A DNA stretch of 10,789 nucleotides from Candidatus Woesearchaeota archaeon (GCA_964519415.1 CAZFJM010000002.1:51973-62761), one strand, 5' to 3'. Positions 473-10,789 are shown, counted from the stretch's first letter. Numbers and translations are program-made. Notes: generated by a model not told the origin, from the sequence alone.

Positions 473-1096
473 ATGAAAATGCCAAATATACAAGAGATAA
501 AAGATAAAGTATCTAATGTAAAAGTACCTCAAAAATTGAAAGAAGATCTTTCTTTTGCAGGAAATACTGCTCTATTTTTAGCTTCTCCCCCAGTTTATGC
601 TGCTAAAAAAGGATTTACGTCTCAACCAAATGAAAATTGGTATGAAAAATCAAGACGTGCAACTTTTAATTTTATTGGTACAGGTATATTGTGTATACTT
701 GGAAGCGGAATAACCGATGATATGTTTACAAGATTCGGTAGAGATAGAACAGTTGAAAATAGCGAAATAAGAGTAACTTATGAATTCGGAAGCCTATTAT
801 TCTCACAAAGATGGAACTGGGAAGTAAAAGATGATTCATTAATGAGAAAAGCACTCCTTCCATTTGAAAGAATCTTAAACCAAAAAAACACATATGGTAA
901 ATCTAATCAAAGAACAGAATTTGAAGGCAAGATAAAAAGAAACGGATTAGATTTTATAGTAGAAGGATATATGCCCGTAACAACAAACGTAACTGACATA
1001 TCAACAGCAGATTTAAGTAAATATACTTACAAAATGTATTTAGGCCGACCTACTCAAAATAATATAGATTTATTATATGGATTAGATAAAAAATAA
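473..1096 (+). CDS. Hypothetical protein, 207 aa, with one central hydrophobic segment (FIGTGILCILGSGI)
   Basis: Long ORF with a TATA-like box at leaderless spacing. I recognise no family motif. A second in-frame ATG lies at 479. Confidence 0.6.
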   Translation: MKMPNIQEIKDKVSNVKVPQKLKEDLSFAGNTALFLASPPVYAAKKGFTSQPNENWYEKSRRATFNFIGTGILCILGSGITDDMFTRFGRDRTVENSEIRVTYEFGSLLFSQRWNWEVKDDSLMRKALLPFERILNQKNTYGKSNQRTEFEGKIKRNGLDFIVEGYMPVTTNVTDISTADLSKYTYKMYLGRPTQNNIDLLYGLDKK

Positions 1097-1098
1097 TT

Positions 1099-1569
1099 CT
1101 AAAGTTTTCCTTCTGGAAATTTATCCATAAAAGATTGCAATAAAGTATTGTAAACATGAGAATTAATACCTGAAGAATGTCTTTCTAAAATCTCCGGATT
1201 ATATTCTAGACTAAAATAACCACCTATTGCTGCACCAACTGCCGTGCTCCTACTTAATCCGGCATAACAATGAACCATAATATCTTCAAAATTACCTTTT
1301 TGTCTATCTAAAAAACGACAGATATTATTTGAATGCTTTTTACCAAATAAAACAAACTTCCCATAAGTTTCCCTATCTTTACTAACAGTCATAGGAGTAA
1401 GATCATCGAAAACCAAAGATAATAGCCCAACGTATAATTCTTTATTTAAAGTACCATAAGACTCACTTTCCCAAGCCCTACAACGTTTTGAACTCATACA
1501 TCGAATAACAATTGTTTTCTTATCTGGAATAAAATTCTTAGCACTAACAACATCTAGAACATGTATCAT
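1099..1569 (-). CDS. Cysteine-dependent protein phosphatase (dual-specificity / tyrosine phosphatase superfamily), 156 aa, no signal peptide
   Basis: P-loop VHCYAGLSRSTAVGAA matches the HCX5R(S/T) signature (Cys101 codon at 1267-1269, Arg107). Upstream LSLVFDDL supplies a candidate general-acid Asp. The layout resembles small prokaryotic predicted tyrosine phosphatases. Confidence 0.8.
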   Translation of the reverse strand: MIHVLDVVSAKNFIPDKKTIVIRCMSSKRCRAWESESYGTLNKELYVGLLSLVFDDLTPMTVSKDRETYGKFVLFGKKHSNNICRFLDRQKGNFEDIMVHCYAGLSRSTAVGAAIGGYFSLEYNPEILERHSSGINSHVYNTLLQSFMDKFPEGKL

Positions 1570-1577
1570 CTTAAGAA

Positions 1578-3185
1578 TTATTTCTTCTTTTTCAAAGCAG
1601 ACATCTTAACTACTTTTACAGAGGAATTTGCTGCTTTTCTTTTCTTAGCAACAAACCAGTAAGCTAATCCTACAAGAATTAAGAATACAAGGATTCCTAA
1701 AGAAACTCTACCTGTAGTTGTACCTATTACATTACCTGTAATCGTACTGAATCTACTTGGTTGTTCTTCTTCAACTTCAGAAACTGTAGAATTTGTTTGA
1801 TTAGCTACAGTAGTATTTGATGTAGTTGGAATAGTAGCATTAACTGTAACATTTGTTTGATTAGTTACTGTTCTTCTAGAACTTCCACCACCGCCACCAG
1901 TATTACCGTCGTTATTATCGCCGGATCCACCAGTTGATTTGATTTCAAATTCAGCTAAAGTAGTCTTGTTTAATAATTCATTAGTAGAACTGTAAAGAGA
2001 TAAGTTTAATGTATAATTACCTGCTGCTAATCCTGTAGGAACAGAATAATTTGTTGGTAAATCTAAAGAACTGTTAGCTGTGAAATTAGATTCATTTACT
2101 AAAACGTTTCCATTATATAATTGGAAATTCAATAATAAAGGATAAACTTCAGAACTTACATTAACAGTAACATTATCTCCAGAAGTTGTTTCATTATCAG
2201 CATCATCTGTAACGTTATTAACAACAGTAGTATTTACATAAATAGTAACTGTAACTGTTGAACTATTTTTATCTAAATCTGTAATATAATATGTGAAGCT
2301 ATCAGTACCTATAAAACTTGTATTTGGAGTATAAATGAAACTACCATCGCTATCTAAGTTTAAAGAACCATTAACTGTAGTATTTACTAATTCAACAAAT
2401 AAATAATCTCCATCAGCATCAACATCATTAGCCTTAACACCTGCAGAAGCACTAACATTCAATTCCCCTAAAGAAGTAGAATATGTGTCATTCATTGCAA
2501 CCGGATTAGAATTGTTTCCAATAACAATAATAGCTCTAGCAGAAGTACTATTAGAATAACCATCAGATAATAAATAATCGAAATAGTCTACACCACTAGC
2601 ATTAGTTAAAGTTGTTGCATAAGTAAATGCACCCATTCCACCTATATGAAGATTAGAAAGATTTCCTTTGTGAGGTTCATTAGTAATATAGAAGTATACT
2701 GTGTCTCCATCTGGATCACCATCAAGATTATTTAATAAACCAGGAGCGCCTACCTGTAAAGATCCATTAGCAAGAGGTAAAGAATATGATTCACCATAAA
2801 CAAGAGGGACACTATTATTTATACCCAACCATACTCTAGTTGTAGTAGAATTATTAACTCCATCATTAGCAATATAATCGAAATAGTCTACACCACTAAA
2901 GTTAGTGAAAATTGTTGCATAAGTAAAGGAACCCAATCCTCCAGAAATAAGATCATTGAAAAAATAAATTGCACCATGTAAAGTTTCGTTAGAAACTAAA
3001 TAAACATCAGTAATATTAGGTTTAGATAAATCATTATTCAAAACTCCAGGAGCTCTAACTTGTAAAGACTCTTCAGAAGAATTTAAACTAAAATAATCAA
3101 CAGATGTATCAACAGCTGCGCTAACACTAGAAACTAATAAAAATAATGATACAAAAACAAAGGAAAGAACATTAAAATTCTTCAT
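1578..3185 (-). CDS. Cadherin-like / bacterial-Ig-like repeat surface adhesin, N-glycoprotein with C-terminal transmembrane anchor (535 aa)
   Basis: I chose the ATG at 3185 (MKNFNVLSFVFVSLFLLVSSVSAAV, a clear signal peptide), preceded by AGGGAG at 3193-3198. There are three repeat modules with an xGVLxNDxDxDGD-type start and a GxDxFxYxxxD-type end: LQVRAPGVLNND..., LQVGAPGLLNNLDGDPDGD..., and AGVKANDVDADGD...DSDGSFIYTPNTSFIGTDSFTYYITD. I count about 36 N-x-S/T sequons by hand. A Gly-rich linker is followed by a C-terminal TM (LGILVFLILVGLAYWFVA) and a basic tail KKRK. Confidence 0.8.
   Translation of the reverse strand: MKNFNVLSFVFVSLFLLVSSVSAAVDTSVDYFSLNSSEESLQVRAPGVLNNDLSKPNITDVYLVSNETLHGAIYFFNDLISGGLGSFTYATIFTNFSGVDYFDYIANDGVNNSTTTRVWLGINNSVPLVYGESYSLPLANGSLQVGAPGLLNNLDGDPDGDTVYFYITNEPHKGNLSNLHIGGMGAFTYATTLTNASGVDYFDYLLSDGYSNSTSARAIIVIGNNSNPVAMNDTYSTSLGELNVSASAGVKANDVDADGDYLFVELVNTTVNGSLNLDSDGSFIYTPNTSFIGTDSFTYYITDLDKNSSTVTVTIYVNTTVVNNVTDDADNETTSGDNVTVNVSSEVYPLLLNFQLYNGNVLVNESNFTANSSLDLPTNYSVPTGLAAGNYTLNLSLYSSTNELLNKTTLAEFEIKSTGGSGDNNDGNTGGGGGSSRRTVTNQTNVTVNATIPTTSNTTVANQTNSTVSEVEEEQPSRFSTITGNVIGTTTGRVSLGILVFLILVGLAYWFVAKKRKAANSSVKVVKMSALKKKK
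1791..1864. repeat. Short direct repeat in the Asn/Thr-rich stalk of the adhesin gene
   Basis: ATTTGTTTGATTAG occurs at 1791-1804 and again at 1851-1864 (60-nt period). It encodes the NQTN(V/S)T-type sequon-rich stalk. Confidence 0.7.
2571..2940. repeat. Tandem intragenic duplication with a 300-nt period (adhesin repeat modules 1 and 2)
   Basis: 2571-2640 aligns with 2871-2940 at 59/70 identical bases by manual alignment, including a 25-nt identical run ATAATCGAAATAGTCTACACCACTA. The protein equivalents are GGMGAFTYATTLTNASGVDYFDYLLSDG and GGLGSFTYATIFTNFSGVDYFDYIANDG. Confidence 0.85.
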
Positions 3186-3186
3186 A

Positions 3187-3513
3187 TTAATTCTCCCTAA
3201 CACGGTATACTCTATTTGTAGTAAGATAAGGTTCAAAAACATAAACATTTTGAACACGAGCAGGAAATGTATTAACTAAATTAGTATTAGACAAAGAATC
3301 AGTCCAAGAAGCACTATCTGCTAAATTAGTAGTTGATTGAACTTTGTAAGATCTAGTATCTCCAGCATCTAGTTTAACATCTAACTTAACTCGAGAATAA
3401 TTATCTGAAGATAAAATACTGATTCCTGTAAAAACTGGTGGTTGTGGAGCACTAGCAGCAGCAGAAGCTAACATAGCCAATCCGCCAATTGCTGATTTTA
3501 TTTTATTTACCAT
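3187..3513 (-). CDS. Small secreted protein (108 aa) with signal peptide, predicted beta-rich
   Basis: The N-terminus MVNKIKSAIGGLAMLASAAASA-PQPP looks like a cleavable signal peptide. The stop at 3187 lies 1 nt before the adhesin start at 3185, so the two are co-transcribed. A TATA box ends 21 nt upstream of the ATG. The motif YKVQSTTNL...SW...VYRV resembles a small beta-sandwich pattern seen at the ends of many uncharacterised surface proteins; this is from memory and is not a named family. Confidence 0.65.
   Translation of the reverse strand: MVNKIKSAIGGLAMLASAAASAPQPPVFTGISILSSDNYSRVKLDVKLDAGDTRSYKVQSTTNLADSASWTDSLSNTNLVNTFPARVQNVYVFEPYLTTNRVYRVREN
3193..3198 (-). promoter_or_regulatory. 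Shine-Dalgarno-like site for the adhesin gene
   Basis: The minus strand reads AGGGAG, 7 nt upstream of ATG 3185. It lies inside the 3' end of the preceding gene. Confidence 0.5.
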
Positions 3514-3534
3514 AAATATTTCAGAAAAACAGGG

Positions 3535-3549
3535 TATTTAAATCTTTCG
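3535..3549 (-). promoter_or_regulatory. BRE/TATA promoter element for the 3513 unit
   Basis: The minus strand reads CGAAAGATTTAAATA. This 15-mer is identical to 9293-9307. The TATA box ends 21 nt before ATG 3513, giving a leaderless geometry. Confidence 0.65.
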
Positions 3550-3562
3550 GTTCTGATGTAAC

Positions 3563-3597
3563 TATTGAATGACAACAAAATGAAGAATTAATCTTTC
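3563..3597 (-). promoter_or_regulatory. Second, upstream promoter-like element containing the TTGTTGTCA box
   Basis: The minus strand reads GAAAGATTAATTCTTCATTTTGTTGTCATTCAATA. It has a degenerate AAAGAT+AT-rich box followed by TTGTTGTCAYTCAATA, and the same 16-mer with one mismatch occurs at 9274-9289. Confidence 0.4.
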
Positions 3598-4298
3598 TCC
3601 GTCACATTTATCCAATCAATAGAAACATAACTATTCTTTTTAGAAGACAATCCTAAATGAGGAGCATTTATGTAAAATGTATATTCACCATCTTCAACAA
3701 ACAAATCACTTGTATTAAACTCAGCAGAAACTATTTGCCAATTACTTACATTTGTCCTATTAATAGAAGCAGTATAAGCAACTTGTGTAATATACTCTTC
3801 ATAAGATGAAGCCTTTGCACCTATAATTAAAGAATCATTTCTAGGCAAATTATCCTTAATATTAATAGCAATAGTAATATTACCTTTAGAATATTCTGCA
3901 GGAACATTAAAATAAACCATCGGCGCAGTCAAATTTCTATGACTCACATTTTCTTTCAAAGAAGAAACTCTTTCAGAAGGAAATAAAACAGGACTTTTAA
4001 ATTCCTGAATACCACCTAGATCATAAAAATAATTAACTTCTGAAGCAGTATTAAAATTAGAATAAATAACAAAACCAAAGAAGATTATTGGAATAACCAA
4101 TATCAAACCCTTAAGCAATTTAGCCTTAAGAGAATCGTTTGTCCTATATAAAATAGCAAACAATGCAACTAAAAAAATCATCAATAAAGAAACTACATAA
4201 ACATTAAACCCTAAAAAGAAAGGAACAATCAAATTAGCCAAAGCAACTAAAGCAAACAAAACTAAAAATCCAATAGCTAAATTTCTATTTATCCTCAT
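3588..4298 (-). CDS. Integral membrane protein (236 aa): three N-terminal TM helices plus a C-terminal extracytoplasmic sequon-rich domain
   Basis: TM segments are LAIGFLVLFALVALANLIVPFFL, VYVVSLLMIFLVALFAILY and LILVIPIIFFGFVIY. After them come several N-x-S/T sites (NVS, NLT, NIT, NDS, NRT, NVS, NTS, NVT). The start at 4298 lies 1 nt after the stop (4300) of the upstream coiled-coil gene. Confidence 0.7.
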   Translation of the reverse strand: MRINRNLAIGFLVLFALVALANLIVPFFLGFNVYVVSLLMIFLVALFAILYRTNDSLKAKLLKGLILVIPIIFFGFVIYSNFNTASEVNYFYDLGGIQEFKSPVLFPSERVSSLKENVSHRNLTAPMVYFNVPAEYSKGNITIAINIKDNLPRNDSLIIGAKASSYEEYITQVAYTASINRTNVSNWQIVSAEFNTSDLFVEDGEYTFYINAPHLGLSSKKNSYVSIDWINVTEKD

Positions 4299-4299
4299 T

Positions 4300-5343
4300 T
4301 TAATCAGACATAGATTTTATAATGCTATTAAAAAAACCCTTCTCCTCCTGTTTTTCTAATTTCTTAACTGGCTTTTTCACAACTTTAGATTTCTTTGAAA
4401 CTTCTTTAGCAGGAGTAAATTCGACCTTAATCTCAGGAGACTCATCAGCTAAAAGAGAAACTAAATTTGAAAATAAACTCTTATCTTTTTTAGATTGTAC
4501 TTTGACAGATTTAACTTGAACTTCCTTAACTTCTTTCTTTTCACCTTCATCAGATAAAATACCAACAAACTTACTAAAAAATCCAGGCTTGCTTTCCTTT
4601 TTAGATTCTTTAACAACAACTTTCTTTACTGGAACTTCTTCTACTCCAATTTCTTTATTTACTCTTCCTTTAATATAAGCAATTTGGCCTCTTAATCTTG
4701 CAAGCTCTTCATCATTTGAAGCTTTCAAATCATTAAACTTTCTCTCAGAGCTAGATAATATCTCTTTCTTACTTCTACTATAATGTCCTTCAAGTTCAAC
4801 AGAATAATTCTCAAGATTAGCACTATATTGGTCCATCAAACTATTTTGTTCAGAAATACTTCTTTTAGTAGAAGTCTTCAAAGCTCTCATTTCAGAGATA
4901 GCCTTTTTATCCAACTTAGCAAAATTAGCTCTCATTTCAGCCAAACCAGTATTAAGCTTAGCTTCATTAGCACTAGACCATTTATTCTTAAATGAATTCA
5001 ATTCTTCCTTCAATTCTTTATTTTCTAGCTTAACTAACTTCAAACCAACATTAATTTTTTCATTAAAAAGAGGCATAACTTCCTTCAAAACTTCTCTCTT
5101 CAAAGAATCTCTTGCCATATCTTTCTTGAATTTTTTAAAACTAGAATCATTGGAATCAACTTTCTTATTCAAATCAGCAAGATCTTTAGAAAGAGTACTA
5201 TTTTTCAAACTAACAGAAATCTCATCAATTCTTTTCTTAATTTCATCGTTGTCAGCTTTAGCAGCTTTGAAAGAATTACGAATCTTTTCTTCGATTACAG
5301 CAGTTCTTTTATCCAACTCCAAACTTAAATTTATGAAAGTCAT
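4300..5343 (-). CDS. Lys/Glu-rich coiled-coil protein (347 aa) with three C-terminal amphipathic repeats
   Basis: About 230 aa are heptad-like and K/E/L/N-rich with no TM. They are followed by GFFSKFVGILSDE (4546-4584), SLFSNLVSLLADE (4441-4479) and GFFNSIIKSMSD (4303-4338), separated by KVKE-rich linkers. The promoter has leaderless geometry. Confidence 0.75.
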   Translation of the reverse strand: MTFINLSLELDKRTAVIEEKIRNSFKAAKADNDEIKKRIDEISVSLKNSTLSKDLADLNKKVDSNDSSFKKFKKDMARDSLKREVLKEVMPLFNEKINVGLKLVKLENKELKEELNSFKNKWSSANEAKLNTGLAEMRANFAKLDKKAISEMRALKTSTKRSISEQNSLMDQYSANLENYSVELEGHYSRSKKEILSSSERKFNDLKASNDEELARLRGQIAYIKGRVNKEIGVEEVPVKKVVVKESKKESKPGFFSKFVGILSDEGEKKEVKEVQVKSVKVQSKKDKSLFSNLVSLLADESPEIKVEFTPAKEVSKKSKVVKKPVKKLEKQEEKGFFNSIIKSMSD

Positions 5344-5350
5344 TATAAAA

Positions 5351-5377
5351 TGACAACAGAAATACTATTTAAACCTT
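5351..5377 (-). promoter_or_regulatory. BRE/TATA promoter plus TGTTGTCA box for the 5343 unit
   Basis: The minus strand reads AAGGTTTAAATA-GTATTTC-TGTTGTCA-TTTTATA-ATG. The TATA box (5366-5373) ends 22 nt before ATG 5343. Confidence 0.6.
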
Positions 5378-5403
5378 GTTATATAAAAAATTTGTTAAAA
5401 AGC

Positions 5404-5414
5404 CTTTTTAAATA
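5404..5414 (+). promoter_or_regulatory. TATA-box-like promoter for the helicase gene (divergent from the 5343 unit)
   Basis: CTTTTTAAATA ends 27 nt upstream of ATG 5442, which suggests a very short leader. Confidence 0.5.
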
Positions 5415-5441
5415 GTCGAATCACAGATTATAAATAAAAAG

Positions 5442-7313
5442 ATGGAAAATATATTTAGTTCGAAGGAAGACCAGCATGTTTTTGATTATCTTAAAATCTT
5501 AAAATCTCTAAATGAAATTCCTTTCCCAATAGGAAAAACAACTTTAATAGACTTCTTAACAGGCGACTCTACAAATGCATCAGTCTCTAAAAACAAATTA
5601 ACTAGGAAAATAAACTTCAATAGTCTAAAACTATCCAAAGACCAAACAAGAGAAATGATAGATGACCTAATCAAACAAAGATTCATAGAAGTTACAGGCA
5701 CTCTTTCAAACCCATTTATTAAACTTCTAAGCCTAACATCTAAAGGCAGTACAGAACTAATCAACCCCCAATACTATAATAAAAAACAAAAAGAAACTCC
5801 GGTCCTAACAAAGTTTGACATTAGCACAGAAGAAATATACGAATTTCAAGAATTTGATAAGTTCCTAGAAAACTTCAATGAAAACCAAAAAAAAGCAATA
5901 ATCTCAAAGAACGAAAAAATAATGTGTATTGCAGGAGCAGGCTCTGGTAAAACAGCAGTTCTAACAAAAAGAATAGAGTTCTTAGTAAAACATAGAGGAG
6001 TAGATCCTTCAAAAATCCTAGCAATAACCTTCACAAGAAAAGCAAGACAAGAAATGAGAAATAGACTTCAAGAATTCGGAATCTCAACAAATGTAGAAAC
6101 ATTCAACTCTTTAGGAGAACACATTCTTAACAAATATGAAAATGAAATTTACGGAAGACCAATAAGACTAATTAGTACTGCAGACAAAATAACAATGGTA
6201 AAGGAAGCCCTAGAAAGTCAAAAAAAGACACTTTCACAAGCAGTAGAAGAATACTTCACACCGCAACAACGAGCAAATAAAACTCCTGAAAGACTAATGT
6301 GGACTTTCATAAACGATTGTTTCACAATAATAGATTATTTCAAATCTAAAAATACACCAATACCTGATTTCTCAAAAGATGCAGACACTAAACACTATCT
6401 AATTGCCCTAATGGTCCATAGAACTTGCAGCTATATTAAAATATATATGGAAACAGAAGGCCTAAGAGACTTTTCAGACCAAGTTATAGATTCATTAAAT
6501 TTCCTTAAAAGAAACCCCGACAAAATCCCTAGATTCGAACATATCCTAGTAGACGAATACCAAGATCTCAACTCCATGCAAGTAGATTTCATAAAACTAC
6601 TAAATGCTCCAAATATTTTTGGAGTTGGCGATCCCAGACAGTCTATTTTTGGTTGGAGAGGCTCAGAAATCACATATATAACAAACTTCTCAAAAGAATA
6701 CCCTGAATCCGAAGTCGTTCCTTTAATCATGAATTACAGAAGCACAAAAAAAATAGTAGAACTAATGAACTCCTCAATTAAACACTTAAAATTTCCAGAC
6801 TTAGTTTCAAATAAAGAATCCAAAATAAACGAAATAGCAATAGAAAAATTCGAAACAGAAATGGATGAAATTTTAGACGTCCTACAGAAAGTCCTAGAAT
6901 CTAAATCAGAAAGACACGAAATATTTATCCTAGCTAGAACAAATAGACAACTACTAGAAATTTCAAAAATAATGAAAAATATGCAAATACCGCACATATT
7001 GAAAACAGAAGACGAAAATACTCAAATAAATGCAAAGGAAGGAGAAGTAACTTTAGCAACAATCCACTCAATCAAAGGATTACAAGCAAGAGAAACTTTC
7101 GTAATTGGCTGCAACGTTCAAAACTTCCCCTGTAAAGCATCCGACCACCCAATAATTGAAATGATAAAAATGGAAAACTACGACAAAGACGAAGAAGAAA
7201 AGAGATTATTCTACGTAGCAATTTCAAGAGCAAAAGAAAAACTATATTTAAGTTATTCAGGAACGAAAACAGATTTCATCACCGATGAAATGATTAAGAT
7301 AATCAATGACTGA
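5442..7313 (+). CDS. SF1 UvrD/PcrA/Rep-like DNA helicase with an N-terminal winged-helix (RQC-like) extension, 623 aa
   Basis: All SF1A motifs are readable. Q-region: NENQKKAI. Motif I: AGAGSGKT (5931-5954). Ia: AITFTRKARQEM. Ib: TFNSLG. II: ILVDEYQDLN. III: GVGDPRQSIFGWRGS. IV: NYRST. V: TIHSIKGLQARETFVIG. VI: EEKRLFYVAISRAKEKLYLSY. The roughly 150 aa N-terminal extension contains FPIGKTTLIDFLTGDS...MIDDLIKQRFIEV...LSLTSKGSTEL. Confidence 0.9.
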   Translation: MENIFSSKEDQHVFDYLKILKSLNEIPFPIGKTTLIDFLTGDSTNASVSKNKLTRKINFNSLKLSKDQTREMIDDLIKQRFIEVTGTLSNPFIKLLSLTSKGSTELINPQYYNKKQKETPVLTKFDISTEEIYEFQEFDKFLENFNENQKKAIISKNEKIMCIAGAGSGKTAVLTKRIEFLVKHRGVDPSKILAITFTRKARQEMRNRLQEFGISTNVETFNSLGEHILNKYENEIYGRPIRLISTADKITMVKEALESQKKTLSQAVEEYFTPQQRANKTPERLMWTFINDCFTIIDYFKSKNTPIPDFSKDADTKHYLIALMVHRTCSYIKIYMETEGLRDFSDQVIDSLNFLKRNPDKIPRFEHILVDEYQDLNSMQVDFIKLLNAPNIFGVGDPRQSIFGWRGSEITYITNFSKEYPESEVVPLIMNYRSTKKIVELMNSSIKHLKFPDLVSNKESKINEIAIEKFETEMDEILDVLQKVLESKSERHEIFILARTNRQLLEISKIMKNMQIPHILKTEDENTQINAKEGEVTLATIHSIKGLQARETFVIGCNVQNFPCKASDHPIIEMIKMENYDKDEEEKRLFYVAISRAKEKLYLSYSGTKTDFITDEMIKIIND

Positions 7314-7326
7314 AAGGTATTTAAAC
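7312..7326 (+). promoter_or_regulatory. BRE/TATA promoter for the 7347 gene, overlapping the helicase stop codon
   Basis: GAAAGGTATTTAAAC ends 20 nt upstream of ATG 7347, a leaderless geometry. Confidence 0.55.
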
Positions 7327-7346
7327 AGAAGATAAATAAGATAATT

Positions 7347-7751
7347 ATGGTAGACCTACAAAATAATAAAAAGTTAATTATAATCATTGCAGCAATCGCT
7401 GCATTAGTAATCATAGCCGGAATCGCAATATCAATTTTTAGTTCTTCATCTAATAAAACAGAAAAAGCTCCAGAAGACCAAACCATCGGAGAAATATTAG
7501 ATGGGTGTATGCAAACATGTAGCCAACTTTCAGGTTCAACTAAAACAGATTGCGAAGCAGGATGTACTCAAGCAAGACAAACAACAGTAAGTGAATTTGA
7601 AAAAGCAGGAATAGTAGGAGCAGAAGATATGACAACAGAAGAAGCATTACAAGAAATAAAAGCTAACTGCGTGAATATTTGTCAAACAAATCCTCAAATA
7701 CCTGAAGAATACAGAGCAGAGTGTGTTATCAAATGTGAATCAGTACAATAA
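7347..7751 (+). CDS. Membrane-anchored, cysteine-rich small protein (134 aa) with two twin-CX3C modules
   Basis: The N-terminus has NNKK followed by a TM (LIIIIAAIAALVIIAGIAISIF). The eight Cys are at positions 54, 58, 69, 73 and 108, 112, 126, 130. That gives CX3C-X10-CX3C (7506-7565) and CX3C-X13-CX3C (7668-7736). Confidence 0.7.
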   Translation: MVDLQNNKKLIIIIAAIAALVIIAGIAISIFSSSSNKTEKAPEDQTIGEILDGCMQTCSQLSGSTKTDCEAGCTQARQTTVSEFEKAGIVGAEDMTTEEALQEIKANCVNICQTNPQIPEEYRAECVIKCESVQ

Positions 7752-7752
7752 A

Positions 7753-9222
7753 TTACTTTCTTCTTCCAACCAAAACTATAATTAAAAGCATTAAAATAAT
7801 TGCAATAAGTAAGATCATATTGAAAATTAAACCATTTTCTTCTCCAGATAGATAACTTTCCATACTAAATCCTTCACTCTCGCTATTATTTACATAATTA
7901 AGAGCAACAACGAAATTATCATTCATCGAAATTGAATCTGCAGTTTCGTTAGAATCAAAGTCATTTACTGGTGCATGCGTATTATGTCCACAGCTAGAAG
8001 TATGAACATGAGTATTTGTACTGCTAGTTGAATTATTAGTTGTAGTATTTGTTGTAGTATTAATTGTAAAGTTAACAGTCGCATTACCTGTAATATTTGT
8101 AGTAGTATTGATAGTCGTATTTATTGTTACATTGGTAGTAATATTAATAGTTGTATTTGTTGTTATATTACCTAGATTACCTACTGTCACATTTGGATTA
8201 GGTAATAAAAAGCTTGAATTAACTCCTAAATAATCTGTATAATTAACATAAGCAATTTGATTTAAATGACTTAAAGAGGAATTATAAACAAAAACATCGA
8301 AACTGAAAGTTTTTACTTCTCCAATATTCAAAGAGCCAGCATCGCAAATTACTCTTCTTTCATTCCAAATATAATGACAATCTGCAGGCAGAGTTATTGG
8401 GAAAACTCCTTGCTCTAAAATATCTGTAACAACTATATTACTTCCAGAAACACTAGTTAAAACAGTATTATTAATATCATCAACCAACCAACCAGCAATA
8501 TCATTCATAGTATTAGGATCACTAACAGTCGGATAATGCCAATACATCCCATTACCAATACGAGATATATTCCTAAGTAAATTAAATCCAGGATTGTTAA
8601 ATTCTTCTCCAATACCTATTGTATAAATAGAAATATTATTTGCAGCAGCAAGCCTTGCCTGTTGAAGAGCGTATGCTCTAGCATTAGCTGGAATATTTGC
8701 CTTTCCATCAGAGATTAAAACAATAACTCTTGAATTATTAGTATTATTAAACTGTTCAGAAGCTTTCTTTATTGCTTCACCAATATTAGTACCGCCAGAA
8801 GCAGAAATTGCACTAATATTATCCTTTACAGAGATATAATCCTGAGTCAAGTTATTTCTTACAAAAGGATTAGCATTAAAATAAATAAGGCCAACTCTAT
8901 CATAAACAGAATTTAAACTATCAACTACTGCCTTTCCAGCTAATTTTGCCTGTGAGAGTTTATCCCCACACATACTACATGAATTATCTATAACTATAAT
9001 AAAATCTGAAGGAACAATAACAGATCCAGAGCTACCTGCACCATTAACAGTCAAAGTAATAGTAGCCCTATCTCCAACAGACAGAACATTAGAAGATAAT
9101 GTCTTATTTCCTTCTAAATAGGGAACTGCTGAAATAAATGTTAATGAAACTACAACTAATAAAATAAAACTTACTAAACTAAGAATGATTCTCTTTGCAT
9201 TTTTGTGTGGTTCTCTCTTCAT
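7753..9222 (-). CDS. von Willebrand factor A (vWA) domain surface glycoprotein with MIDAS motif, Asn/Thr-rich stalk and C-terminal TM anchor (489 aa)
   Basis: N-terminal signal or anchor IILSLVSFILLVVVSLTFISA. MIDAS DxSxS is IVIDNSCSM (DNSCS at 8974-8988), with GGTNIGEA and VLISDGKAN as the later vWA motifs. The stalk is NITTNTTINITTNVTINTTINTTTNITGNATVNFTINTTTNTTTNNSTSSTNT. The C-terminal TM is IFNMILLIAIILMLLIIVLVG followed by RRK. Confidence 0.85.
   Translation of the reverse strand: MKREPHKNAKRIILSLVSFILLVVVSLTFISAVPYLEGNKTLSSNVLSVGDRATITLTVNGAGSSGSVIVPSDFIIVIDNSCSMCGDKLSQAKLAGKAVVDSLNSVYDRVGLIYFNANPFVRNNLTQDYISVKDNISAISASGGTNIGEAIKKASEQFNNTNNSRVIVLISDGKANIPANARAYALQQARLAAANNISIYTIGIGEEFNNPGFNLLRNISRIGNGMYWHYPTVSDPNTMNDIAGWLVDDINNTVLTSVSGSNIVVTDILEQGVFPITLPADCHYIWNERRVICDAGSLNIGEVKTFSFDVFVYNSSLSHLNQIAYVNYTDYLGVNSSFLLPNPNVTVGNLGNITTNTTINITTNVTINTTINTTTNITGNATVNFTINTTTNTTTNNSTSSTNTHVHTSSCGHNTHAPVNDFDSNETADSISMNDNFVVALNYVNNSESEGFSMESYLSGEENGLIFNMILLIAIILMLLIIVLVGRRK
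8011..8178. repeat. Low-complexity repetitive DNA encoding the (I/V)N(I/T)TT stalk of the vWA protein
   Basis: Reiterated GTTGTAGTATT / GTAATATT / ATTGTT units on the + strand. They encode residues 349-404, which are nearly all N, T, I and V and form overlapping N-x-T sequons. Confidence 0.75.
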
Positions 9223-9273
9223 GATAATCCATCACACACTCTCTTCACTCGGGTTAAACTAAATAATAGTTAT

Positions 9274-9307
9274 TATTGAGTGACAACAATCCTATTTAAA
9301 TCTTTCG
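9274..9307 (-). promoter_or_regulatory. BRE/TATA promoter plus TTGTTGTCA box for the vWA gene
   Basis: The minus strand reads CGAAAGATTTAAATA-GGA-TTGTTGTCACTCAATA. The 15-mer is identical to 3535-3549. The TATA box sits about 70 nt upstream of ATG 9222, which implies a leader of roughly 50 nt, unlike the other units. Confidence 0.6.
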
Positions 9308-9332
9308 TTTTGAAACCACCAACCAGTAACAT

Positions 9333-9375
9333 AAAAAACAATAGAAAAATTATAACCAATAAAATAAAAGAAAAA
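9333..9375 (-). terminator. Oligo-T terminator region after pilin-like gene 1
   Basis: The minus strand downstream of the stop at 9381 reads GTAAGTTTTTCTTTTATTTTATTGG...ATTTTTC...GTTTTTTATG. Several T5-T6 runs (complements of 9371-9375, 9361-9370, 9345-9349 and 9333-9338) match archaeal intrinsic termination signals. Confidence 0.55.
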
Positions 9376-9380
9376 CTTAC

Positions 9381-9956
9381 TTAAGGAAGAGTATTATATG
9401 CAATATTATAACGACCATCTGTTCCAAGATTGCTATCATCTACATTAAATGCAGACCTTAAATTTACTACATCCAAAGCATTTGCTCTTGAACATTCCAT
9501 CCCATTAATGAAAATAACCCAGTTGGAATTATCACTTCTTTTACTGTTGTTAAATTCTAAACATTTATTATATGCTAATTTATTGGAAATATCAGAATTA
9601 CATTTTGCAGCAACAGTGCTAGAGATTTCTGCTTCTGTGAAAGAAACAACACCGCTTCTTTGCATAAATTCACAATTAGTATATCCCTTCTCACCGCCTA
9701 CAACAGCAGGATATTCAAAAGTACCACAATACTTAGCAAACTTGTCTGCATCAGTAGATCCACTTAAAGAAGATAAGAAACTTGTTTGACAAGAAGCAAT
9801 TCTTGCTTTGTTTTCAACACCTTGTGCGTCAATAACAGTACTAACTTTACCAAAACTAGTATAAACGAAATATGCAACAACAACTGCAGCAATAACAGCT
9901 ACAATAATCCACGGAGTAACCTCCATAGTCTCTGCACCTTTTTTATTCATCCTCAT
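9381..9956 (-). CDS. Type IV pilin-like protein with class III signal peptide (191 aa), six-Cys ectodomain
   Basis: The N-terminus MRMNKKG-AETMEVTPWIIVAVIAAVVVAYFVY has a short basic leader, Gly at -1, Glu at +5 and a roughly 20-aa hydrophobic helix. This closely resembles archaeal pilin/archaellin-type precursors (KKGQxxxE...hydrophobic). An alternative start is ATG 9950. The TATA box ends 21 nt upstream of ATG 9956. Confidence 0.7.
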   Translation of the reverse strand: MRMNKKGAETMEVTPWIIVAVIAAVVVAYFVYTSFGKVSTVIDAQGVENKARIASCQTSFLSSLSGSTDADKFAKYCGTFEYPAVVGGEKGYTNCEFMQRSGVVSFTEAEISSTVAAKCNSDISNKLAYNKCLEFNNSKRSDNSNWVIFINGMECSRANALDVVNLRSAFNVDDSNLGTDGRYNIAYNTLP

Positions 9957-9963
9957 TCTTTTC

Positions 9964-9990
9964 TTACAACAAACCTCTTTATAAATCTTT
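9964..9990 (-). promoter_or_regulatory. BRE/TATA promoter plus TGTTGTAA box for pilin-like gene 1
   Basis: The minus strand reads AAAGATTTATAAA-GAGGTT-TGTTGTAA-GAAAAGA-ATG. It begins directly after the stop codon of the upstream gene (9991-9993). Confidence 0.6.
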
Positions 9991-10743
9991 TTATGAACTA
10001 GTTTTTGAAATATGATTAAACATTAAATTAAATGCAATAAGTTCTATTTTTTTATTTAAATAATAACTATCTTTACTAACCATATGGACCTGCCCAGGAA
10101 CAACCCTATTATATCCTGCATCAAATTGAGGAAATTCCTCATTTAAACAATCCAATAGACTCACTTCAGAATCTGTAACTTCAGAACATATTCCATGACT
10201 TATAACCAAGGCATCGATACCTGGCAAACCAACTCTATTCAAATTAAAAGAACTATTCAAACTAGAAGAGTAATATACTTTAGAATTATCTTCCTTATTA
10301 GAACTTAAATTTTCTTCAATCTGTAATACCGAAGTTGAAATCTTAATAGTTGTACCATCAAATTCAAAAGAATTTACCTTTCCAAAAAATTCTTTCATTT
10401 CCTCAGACTTACCATTATAATTTTTAAAATTAGTTTCTACTTTAGCTTTAAACAATGCATTAAGATCTAAATTAGGATCCCCAATTTTCATAGAATTCTC
10501 CTCCAATACTTCCTTATAACTGTTTAATGAAACCTCCATAAGCCTAAAATATAATGTAGTTTCTGCCAACTGATGATTTGAATAAACTTGCTCTAATTTT
10601 GAAACATCATTAAAATTTCCTGAAATTTTAGCCAAATCAGAATTCATCGCACCAAGTACATATACAAATAATACAATAGTTAAAATTACCATTACCGCTA
10701 CAGAGATATCTCCTCTTTTATTTAATTTAAGATTTGAAAACAT
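9991..10743 (-). CDS. Second pilin-like protein with a putative class III signal peptide (250 aa)
   Basis: I prefer ATG 10743 (MFSNLKLNKRG-DISVAVMVILTIVLFVYVLGA) because GGAGG lies 6 nt upstream. The track's start at 10767 is a TTG, and that frame stays open to the window edge. The basic leader ends in KRG and is followed by a hydrophobic helix. Asp at +1 is atypical, so the prepilin call is tentative. Confidence 0.6.
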   Translation of the reverse strand: MFSNLKLNKRGDISVAVMVILTIVLFVYVLGAMNSDLAKISGNFNDVSKLEQVYSNHQLAETTLYFRLMEVSLNSYKEVLEENSMKIGDPNLDLNALFKAKVETNFKNYNGKSEEMKEFFGKVNSFEFDGTTIKISTSVLQIEENLSSNKEDNSKVYYSSSLNSSFNLNRVGLPGIDALVISHGICSEVTDSEVSLLDCLNEEFPQFDAGYNRVVPGQVHMVSKDSYYLNKKIELIAFNLMFNHISKTSS

Positions 10744-10789
10744 CTTTAACCTCCAAAAAATAAGCAAATTCCAAATAATCCTTAGGACA
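10727..10789 (-). CDS. Possible 3' end of an upstream gene overlapping the start of pilin-like gene 2
   Basis: The minus-strand frame entering from the window edge reads CPKDYLEFAYFLEVKDVFKS and stops at TAA (10727-10729). It overlaps ATG 10743 by 17 nt. Only 20 codons are visible, so this is weak. Confidence 0.3.
   Translation of the reverse strand, partial: CPKDYLEFAYFLEVKDVFKS
10750..10754 (-). promoter_or_regulatory. Shine-Dalgarno site for pilin-like gene 2
   Basis: The minus strand reads GGAGG, then TTAAAG, then ATG (10743). A perfect core SD suggests this gene is internal to an operon that starts beyond the window. Confidence 0.6.

Follow-up and report, generated by a model that had tools for sequence, protein, structure and literature searches.

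This locus raises the question of whether an archaeal surface fibre and a metal-dependent adhesin form a single host-attachment organelle. The DNA in question, referred to at its full length as the window, is a stretch of 10,789 nt from Candidatus Woesearchaeota archaeon (GCA_964519415.1, CAZFJM010000002.1:51973-62761). Towards its end, two consecutive minus-strand genes encode membrane proteins with pilin-like N-termini (pilin 1 and pilin 2); they are followed by the gene of a surface glycoprotein with a vWA domain and by a convergent gene for a protein with CX3C motifs. An earlier note on this DNA had grouped all four as a candidate adhesive-pilus or cell-contact module. There is good support for counting pilin 1 and pilin 2 among the prepilin-like (class III type) components of a type IV filament, because genes for a platform protein, an ATPase and an A24 peptidase flank homologous blocks in other loci.

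A six-gene block with class III-type leaders

Logan contig L001 (14,148 nt) matches the window with 100% identity over 10,689 nt; it runs 3.4 kb past the window end and adds four further genes on the same strand, g1 to g4. The order in L001 is g1-g2-g3-g4-g5 (pilin 2)-pilin 1, and window positions 9381-10789 are the final two and a half genes of this six-gene prepilin-type block (Table 1). From g2 through g3 and g4 to pilin 2, each gene overlaps the preceding one, and g1 is spaced from g2 by 37 nt. The best start of pilin 2 is the ATG at 10743, which lies 6 nt after a GGAGG (10750-10754) and overlaps the end of g4. The operon that the earlier note, citing this GGAGG, had expected to continue upstream of the window does so with four more block genes.

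The block order is kept in relatives at pilin 1 identities of 65% (L007), 54% (L011), 41% (L017, partial) and 36% (L019), and likewise in two NCBI metagenome-assembled genome (MAG) contigs, L020 and L021. A profile scan of a genome collection returned a single related locus, L016, in a Candidatus Woesearchaeota MAG with 86% pilin 1 identity. The flanks of the close loci hold archaeal markers, namely tRNA-intron endonuclease, Alba, S17e, FEN1 and PolB. A DPANN archaeon as the source organism is supported. In place of g1-g5, L016 has at 898-5941 the genes of a transposase-like protein of 419 aa and a methyltransferase-like protein of 958 aa (both read from sequence only), along with two small genes.

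All six block proteins carry the motif [KR][KR][GA] followed by a hydrophobic transmembrane (TM) helix, and of 18 N-termini from three orthologous loci 17 retain it. As a control, all open reading frames (ORFs) with an N-terminal hydrophobic segment were scanned in five loci. Besides the block genes, the motif was found in one or two genes just upstream of the block in relatives and, in L015, in a pilin 1 homologue that stands alone; it was not found in the vWA, CX3C, 236-aa, Big_9 or other membrane proteins of these loci. Given this distribution, complete in the block, nearly so in the orthologues and absent from other TM proteins, the motif is not a product of chance. In wider sets of homologues, the TM helix has [KR][GA] ahead of it in 56 of 57 pilin 1, 68 of 69 g2, 69 of 80 g1, 51 of 62 g3 and all ten g4 sequences, and in 28 of the 31 loci that hold a g5 (pilin 2) homologue. 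The commonest processing-site patterns are KG/Q and KG/A (a slash marks the putative cut), and the commonest +1 residues of the pilin 1 homologues are Q and A; such leaders resemble those of characterised archaeal pilins and archaellins (PMC4371748).

Profile-profile comparison of the six families yields weak similarity that is mostly N-terminal, and the block genes are therefore not recent paralogues. Pilins usually share their N-termini and have unrelated heads.

The leaders ending in KKG and KRG, each followed by a hydrophobic helix, that had been read in the two window proteins are present as described. Pilin 1 has the leader K-K-G/AETME, with Glu at +2 in addition to the Glu at +5 reported before, and the six cysteines reported with it. 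Four close homologues are known, and a profile search adds 20 cluster representatives. In an alignment of 23 sequences with identity down to 19%, no variation is seen at K5, G7 and five cysteines, and almost none at the sixth cysteine; these 23 family members have no meaningful Pfam or NCBIfam family. An AlphaFold2 model built on this alignment, with a predicted local distance difference test score (pLDDT) of 83.8, places a helix at residues 14-35 ahead of a compact mixed alpha/beta head. Pilin 2 (leader K-R-G/DISVAV) has seven close homologues; its AlphaFold2 model is poor (pLDDT 55.8) and was unused.

Some distant loci hold two or three pilin 1 homologues. Given a promoter-like box of its own, the disulfide-rich head and the duplication of the family in several loci, pilin 1 may be the main or a variable subunit of the filament. 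The box in question, AAAGATTTAWAWA, occurs as three exact copies in L001 (4197, 4882 and 10640, equivalent to window 9978-9990, 9293-9305 and 3535-3547), all 34-83 nt 5' of gene starts, those of pilin 1, the vWA protein and a 95-aa protein. It is likely a local BRE/TATA consensus (B recognition element and TATA box), judging by sequence and position; only the three exact matches were used, and with up to two mismatches the box is not enriched over chance. One copy, AAAGATTTATAAA, lies 34 nt before the ATG of pilin 1, a gene that may thus be transcribed from a promoter of its own. A distant family member of 152 aa (L015 6639-7097, MKRG/QTEVSLGTILL) stands alone among housekeeping genes and resembles the stand-alone pilin genes of other archaea.

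ATPase, platform and peptidase genes in homologous loci

The connection between the block and a filament motor comes from g1. Its homologues number 27 in the protein database, and the most distant of them, P0071 of locus L022, matches g1 with E = 3e-14 over 260 ectodomain residues. P0071 directly follows the genes of a 770-aa T2SSE ATPase and of the platform, a membrane protein of 715 aa in which 8 hydrophobic segments are seen, is itself followed by a run of small proteins with mostly KKG-type leaders, and has an A24 peptidase gene 9 kb downstream. The ATPase (Pfam T2SSE, 7.6e-15) has A. fulgidus GspE2, CpaF and FlaI as its closest solved relatives, and the peptidase (Peptidase_A24, 1.7e-15) is FlaK-like by a sub-threshold family match. 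The platform family gives weak T2SSF matches in 3 of 11 members (best E = 8e-5), and its profile has no match among PDB sequences. A 138-aa L022 gene of similar size and position to g2 is not significantly similar to it by BLASTP.

A metagenome scan with the g1 alignment returned at least 544 relatives, of which 80 loci were taken for the following counts. Briefly, the ORFs of each locus were searched with hidden Markov models (HMMs) of the six block families and of the L022 ATPase, platform and peptidase, so that E-values refer to small local databases; archaeal markers are seen in some of these loci. Of 47 testable loci, 46 have g1, g2 and g3 in direct succession. Among 34 loci having more than 6 kb of upstream sequence, the platform gene lies upstream in 30 and the ATPase gene in 25; four loci lack both, namely the three nearest the window (L025, L026 and L029) and L037. 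The A24 peptidase gene lies downstream in 22 of the 28 loci having more than 6.5 kb on that side, and in most of the distant loci it stands 3' of the last pilin 1-family gene. Taken together, these sequence comparisons make it probable that the block belongs to a type IV filament system, archaeal type IV pilus/Tad-like, that is widespread in DPANN.

An archaellum was considered and rejected: the ATPase scores 128 bits against a FlaI model cut-off of 550, and Pfam and NCBIfam scans of the L022 proteins give no archaellum-specific family except the sub-threshold FlaK-like match.

From these comparisons, we infer cleavage, polymerisation, subunit roles and adhesion as follows. Each block product would insert in the membrane via its N-terminal helix, and a FlaK/PibD-type A24 peptidase would cut after K-[KR]-[G/A]. 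The ATPase and the polytopic platform would then polymerise subunits into a surface fibre, in which g1-g5, with their fixed order, would probably be the priming, base or tip (minor pilin-like) set and either pilin 1 or a class of leader-bearing proteins of 51-55 aa could be the main subunit. In this Woesearchaeota clade the block has become detached from the genes for motor and peptidase, presumed to be at some other place in the genome. The vWA protein would be a Sec-exported, C-terminally anchored, metal-dependent adhesin-type glycoprotein, its gene occupying a slot after the block in which the surface protein varies.

The 51-55 aa proteins are encoded upstream of the block (L007 4301-4468, L020 6300-6467, L021 6258-6416) or directly after g1 (L022 10813-10968). 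Those of L007, L020 and L021 have class III-type leaders, MRLIKKG/QVTLHGVDLILAILGLV..., proteins of 52-55 aa in related loci have KKG/Q leaders, and the L022 protein begins MSKRAEFVWDK...; their C-terminal ends are similar (RFGGCFK, FRFGS, RFGG). They are about the size of Flp pilins and could be the real main pilin. With them in L007, L020 and L021 are KKG-leader proteins of 199-254 aa and 422-452 aa. In L001 this position, directly upstream of g1, is occupied by a partial GLUG surface protein with seven repeats (L001 8-1015; Pfam PF07581, 9.5e-23).

The system resembles known archaeal type IV pili (Epd of M. maripaludis, PilA of Haloferax, Aap/Ups of Sulfolobus) in its class III leaders [KR][GA], with KG/Q common as in Epd (PMC4371748), in having several minor-pilin-like genes in one operon, and in the FlaI/TadA-type ATPase, polytopic platform and FlaK-like A24 peptidase of the homologous loci. 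Pilin genes away from motor genes are likewise found in Haloferax (pilA1-6). Unlike the known archaeal pili, the block proteins do not match curated pilin families, and the fixed g1-g5 block is not described in PMC4858521 or bioRxiv 10.64898/2026.04.22.720090. The cognate pilins of nanoarchaeal pilus ATPases were not identified by Makarova et al. 2016.

The vWA protein and the alternative readings

The 489-aa vWA protein carries the domain (Pfam VWA, E = 2.8e-18) with a complete metal ion-dependent adhesion site (MIDAS), whose DNSCS (at residue 79), GGT and SDG motifs align with the MIDAS of BatB (3ibs) and S. acidocaldarius VWA2 (5a8j). It also contains 27 N-x-S/T sequons, a beta-rich region, an Asn/Thr stalk and, with GRRK after it, a C-terminal TM helix. 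These MIDAS motifs, the stalk and the TM helix had all been recognised in the earlier reading. The conserved N-terminus, FISA/VPYLEGNK, reads as a Sec-type signal and lacks [KR][GA]. Only vWA-type Pfam families score above cut-off, and no pilin or PilY1 family is found. This topology, with a Sec signal at one end and a TM anchor at the other, speaks against a role of the vWA protein as a subunit of the fibre; the protein's probable place of action is the cell surface next to the fibre, not the fibre itself.

Adjacency is the main reason to join the two. By domain HMM, the vWA gene occurs in six distinct loci only (L001, L007/L025, L011, L016, L017 and L020), and in these it lies directly 3' of pilin 1 across pilin 1 identities of 41-100%. 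In L016 it is still beside pilin 1 although g1-g5 appear to have been displaced by a mobile element; there a frameshift or an assembly error divides the vWA gene (6753-8662) into two ORFs, of 259 and 386 aa. The domain HMM finds the gene in none of about 30 motor-linked loci, nor in the other loci taken. In sister loci the slot after pilin 1 is filled by other proteins of signal-peptide type, a 399-aa Ig (immunoglobulin)-like protein (L021), a 587-aa protein (L026) and a 330-aa protein (L024). The pilin 1-vWA pairing is real but clade-limited. In addition, the gap of 158 nt after pilin 1 contains the box AAAGATTTAAATA, and the vWA gene's possession of this box suggests a separate transcription unit.

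The reading put forward in the earlier note is that the fibre presents or docks the MIDAS vWA domain as an adhesin, the two forming one host-attachment organelle by analogy with PilY1, TadG and S. sanguinis PilB. The persistent adjacency and the complete MIDAS would fit it, and a slot that holds other surface proteins in sisters would suit exchangeable adhesin cassettes. Against it stand the absence of the gene from every motor-linked locus, the conserved Sec-type N-terminus, the C-terminal tether, the lack of any PilY1-type or pilin domain and the promoter-like box; moreover, the adjacency may reflect a clade-wide gene order of tRNA endonuclease, block, UvrD and FEN1. With the pairing limited to one clade, no pilin module, an exchanged slot and a separate promoter-like box, a fibre displaying the vWA domain is possible but unproven, and as an account of the locus we consider it unlikely. 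As for the gene order expected in relatives, the block is kept (36-65% identity), whereas the vWA gene is confined to the close clade and the position of the CX3C gene is inconsistent, so the claim of a conserved vWA partner does not hold.

The bacterial fimU-pilVWXY1E operon and the Tad genes TadE/F/G resemble the locus in that an operon for several small pilin-like proteins stands beside a vWA surface protein, and the ATPase of the present system is related to CpaF. Unlike in PilY1 and TadG systems, the vWA protein here has neither a pilin module nor the PilY1 C-terminal domain, is anchored by a C-terminal TM helix and is not conserved with the system; no sequence homology between bacterial minor pilins and g1-g5 was detected. 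Judged as a pilus-borne vWA adhesin, lacking as it does a class III leader and a sortase or fimbrial polymerisation signal as well, it does not group with TadG, S. sanguinis PilB, PilY1, RrgA/GBS104 or Mfa5, the last of which it matches through the vWA domain only (E = 2e-4). Its best vWA sequence matches are to the BatA/BatB and ArnB/VWA2 proteins (3ibs BatB, 9e-10; 5a8j VWA2, 6e-9). In contrast to BatB and VWA2, the window protein is extracellular, with signal peptide, sequons, stalk and anchor, and has no MoxR/FHA partner near. In Makarova et al. 2016 vWA proteins come up solely as regulators in the cytoplasm, TadG being the bacterial case, and a study of archaeal type IV filaments (bioRxiv 10.64898/2026.04.22.720090) mentions DPANN briefly and vWA not at all.

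A second reading holds that the six proteins are uncleaved N-terminal anchors, or form a short pseudopilus or secretion device, with no extended pilus. Several observations that weigh against a filament belong here. First, Pfam and NCBIfam scans give no curated family of pilins or class III signals for any of the six proteins, even at E <= 1, and four of the proteins have 5-9 polar residues between the putative cut site and the hydrophobic core. Second, the pilin 1 model has a low-confidence hinge (residues 36-39) between TM helix and head and no single long alpha-1 helix. Solved archaeal pilins have an Ig-like sandwich head; that of pilin 1 is, unlike them, a three-disulfide alpha/beta domain. 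The search of this ectodomain with Foldseek, suggested previously, gave no match in the PDB, to a known pilin or otherwise (best E = 4.4), and none in BFVD; the modelled fold may be new. Third, g1 has a conserved glycine-rich, hydrophobic C-terminal segment, and because of it g1 may be a membrane assembly factor instead of a pilin. Finally, the peptidase, ATPase and platform genes sought by extending the sequence are missing from the 10 kb around the block in the loci of this clade (L001, L007/L025, L011, L020, L021, L026 and L029), although homologous loci hold all three. Nevertheless, an invariant K..G in a family of 19% identity, together with the motif counts in six families, is hard to explain without a peptidase site; most of the distant loci flank the same genes with ATPase, platform and A24 peptidase; and a short pseudopilus is still a type IV filament. 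We regard this second reading as very improbable. The type IV filament system remains the preferred interpretation of the block.

That the filament serves DNA uptake or exchange (competence, Ups pili) instead of host adhesion is hardly likely at all: type IV filaments do so elsewhere (PMC4371748) and the block lies near UvrD and FEN1 in the close clade, but no ComEC, Ced or DNA-binding component was found in any locus and the UvrD neighbourhood is not kept in motor-linked loci.

Neighbouring genes and significance

The CX3C protein, whose gene ends 1 nt from the vWA stop as noted before, combines an N-terminal TM helix with four CX3C motifs, and its eight cysteines are invariant in four orthologues. 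No family match was found, and the term twin-CX3C describes a motif and not membership of a family. Its neighbourhood varies: in L007 the gene adjoins UvrD, and some 5.5 kb separate it from the vWA gene; L020 has it beside the vWA gene, apart from UvrD; and in L011 it was not found between vWA and UvrD. Because of this inconsistency we judge the CX3C protein to be unrelated to the pilus block, and it drops out of the module to which it had been assigned. The roughly 5.5-kb island between the vWA gene and the CX3C-UvrD pair of L007 (12662-18000) encodes Fic, an Mrr-type nuclease and a nucleotidyltransferase, and resembles a mobile or defence insertion.

Further genes of the window are listed in Table 1 with the block. 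The UvrD-family helicase is kept beside the block in several relatives, and the Big_9 protein is a second adhesin-type protein of the window.

Table 1. Features of the window, of the adjoining part of contig L001 and of their putative processing sites (slash). Coordinates are window positions unless L001 is named.
Feature	Position	Strand	Length	Remarks
g1	L001, beyond window end		333 aa	MNKRG/DINWFIV
g2	L001, beyond window end		143 aa	GKKG/DAEEVSWPQVIF
g3	L001, beyond window end		167 aa	MDKKA/SEKINAAMFLL
g4	L001 3020-3460; 3' end at window 10727..10789	-	146 aa	MLNKKG/VGEGFTW...; MLNKKG/VGEGFTWAAGLIV
pilin 2 (g5, fifth block gene)	9991..10743	-	250 aa	MFSNLKLNKRG/DISVAVMVILTIVLFVYVL; MFSNLKLNKRG/DISVAVMVIL
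BRE/TATA-like box AAAGATTTATAAA	9978..9990	-		candidate promoter, 34 nt 5' of pilin 1 ATG
pilin 1 (sixth, last block gene)	9381..9956	-	191 aa	MRMNKKG/AETMEVTPWIIVAVIAAVVVAYF; MRMNKKG/AETMEVTPWIIVAV
BRE/TATA-like box AAAGATTTAAATA	9293..9305	-		candidate promoter, 83 nt 5' of vWA ATG, within the 158-nt gap after pilin 1
vWA surface glycoprotein	7753..9222	-	489 aa	
CX3C protein	7347..7751	+	134 aa	33 nt 3' of the UvrD helicase gene, same direction
UvrD-family helicase	5442-7313	+		N-terminal RQC-like winged-helix region (Pfam RQC 7e-5, right at cut-off)
Lys/Glu-rich protein	4300-5343	-	347 aa	coiled-coil look, no family
Big_9 surface protein	1578-3257	-	535-559 aa	Big_9 and cadherin-like repeats (1.8e-24), many N-x-S/T sequons, C-terminal TM helix, long Lys-rich tail
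156-aa protein	1099-1569	-	156 aa	weak, sub-threshold dual-specificity phosphatase match (2e-4)

The pilin families described here are unannotated; the archaeal type IV filament itself is a known kind of structure. Little is understood of the way in which DPANN archaea attach to their hosts. A parallel by lifestyle only is offered by the bacterial CPR (candidate phyla radiation)/Saccharibacteria, ultrasmall episymbionts whose type IV pili bind the host (PMC9894109, PMC12206443). It is conceivable, if doubtful, that DPANN share an undescribed type IV filament with a fixed priming/tip set (g1-g5) and a disulfide-rich pilin of novel fold, which in one Woesearchaeota clade has been uncoupled from the motor genes and joined to exchangeable adhesin cassettes (MIDAS vWA, Ig-like and others) as a modular host-attachment organelle. 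The pairing of pilus and vWA protein is local to one clade and not a general design. The six conserved, unannotated families travel with an ATPase, a platform and a prepilin peptidase in metagenome contigs, with hundreds of g1 relatives, and provide targets for annotation models, for structural work and for the labelling of DPANN surface fibres. As a marker of DPANN pili the block is both useful and widely conserved.

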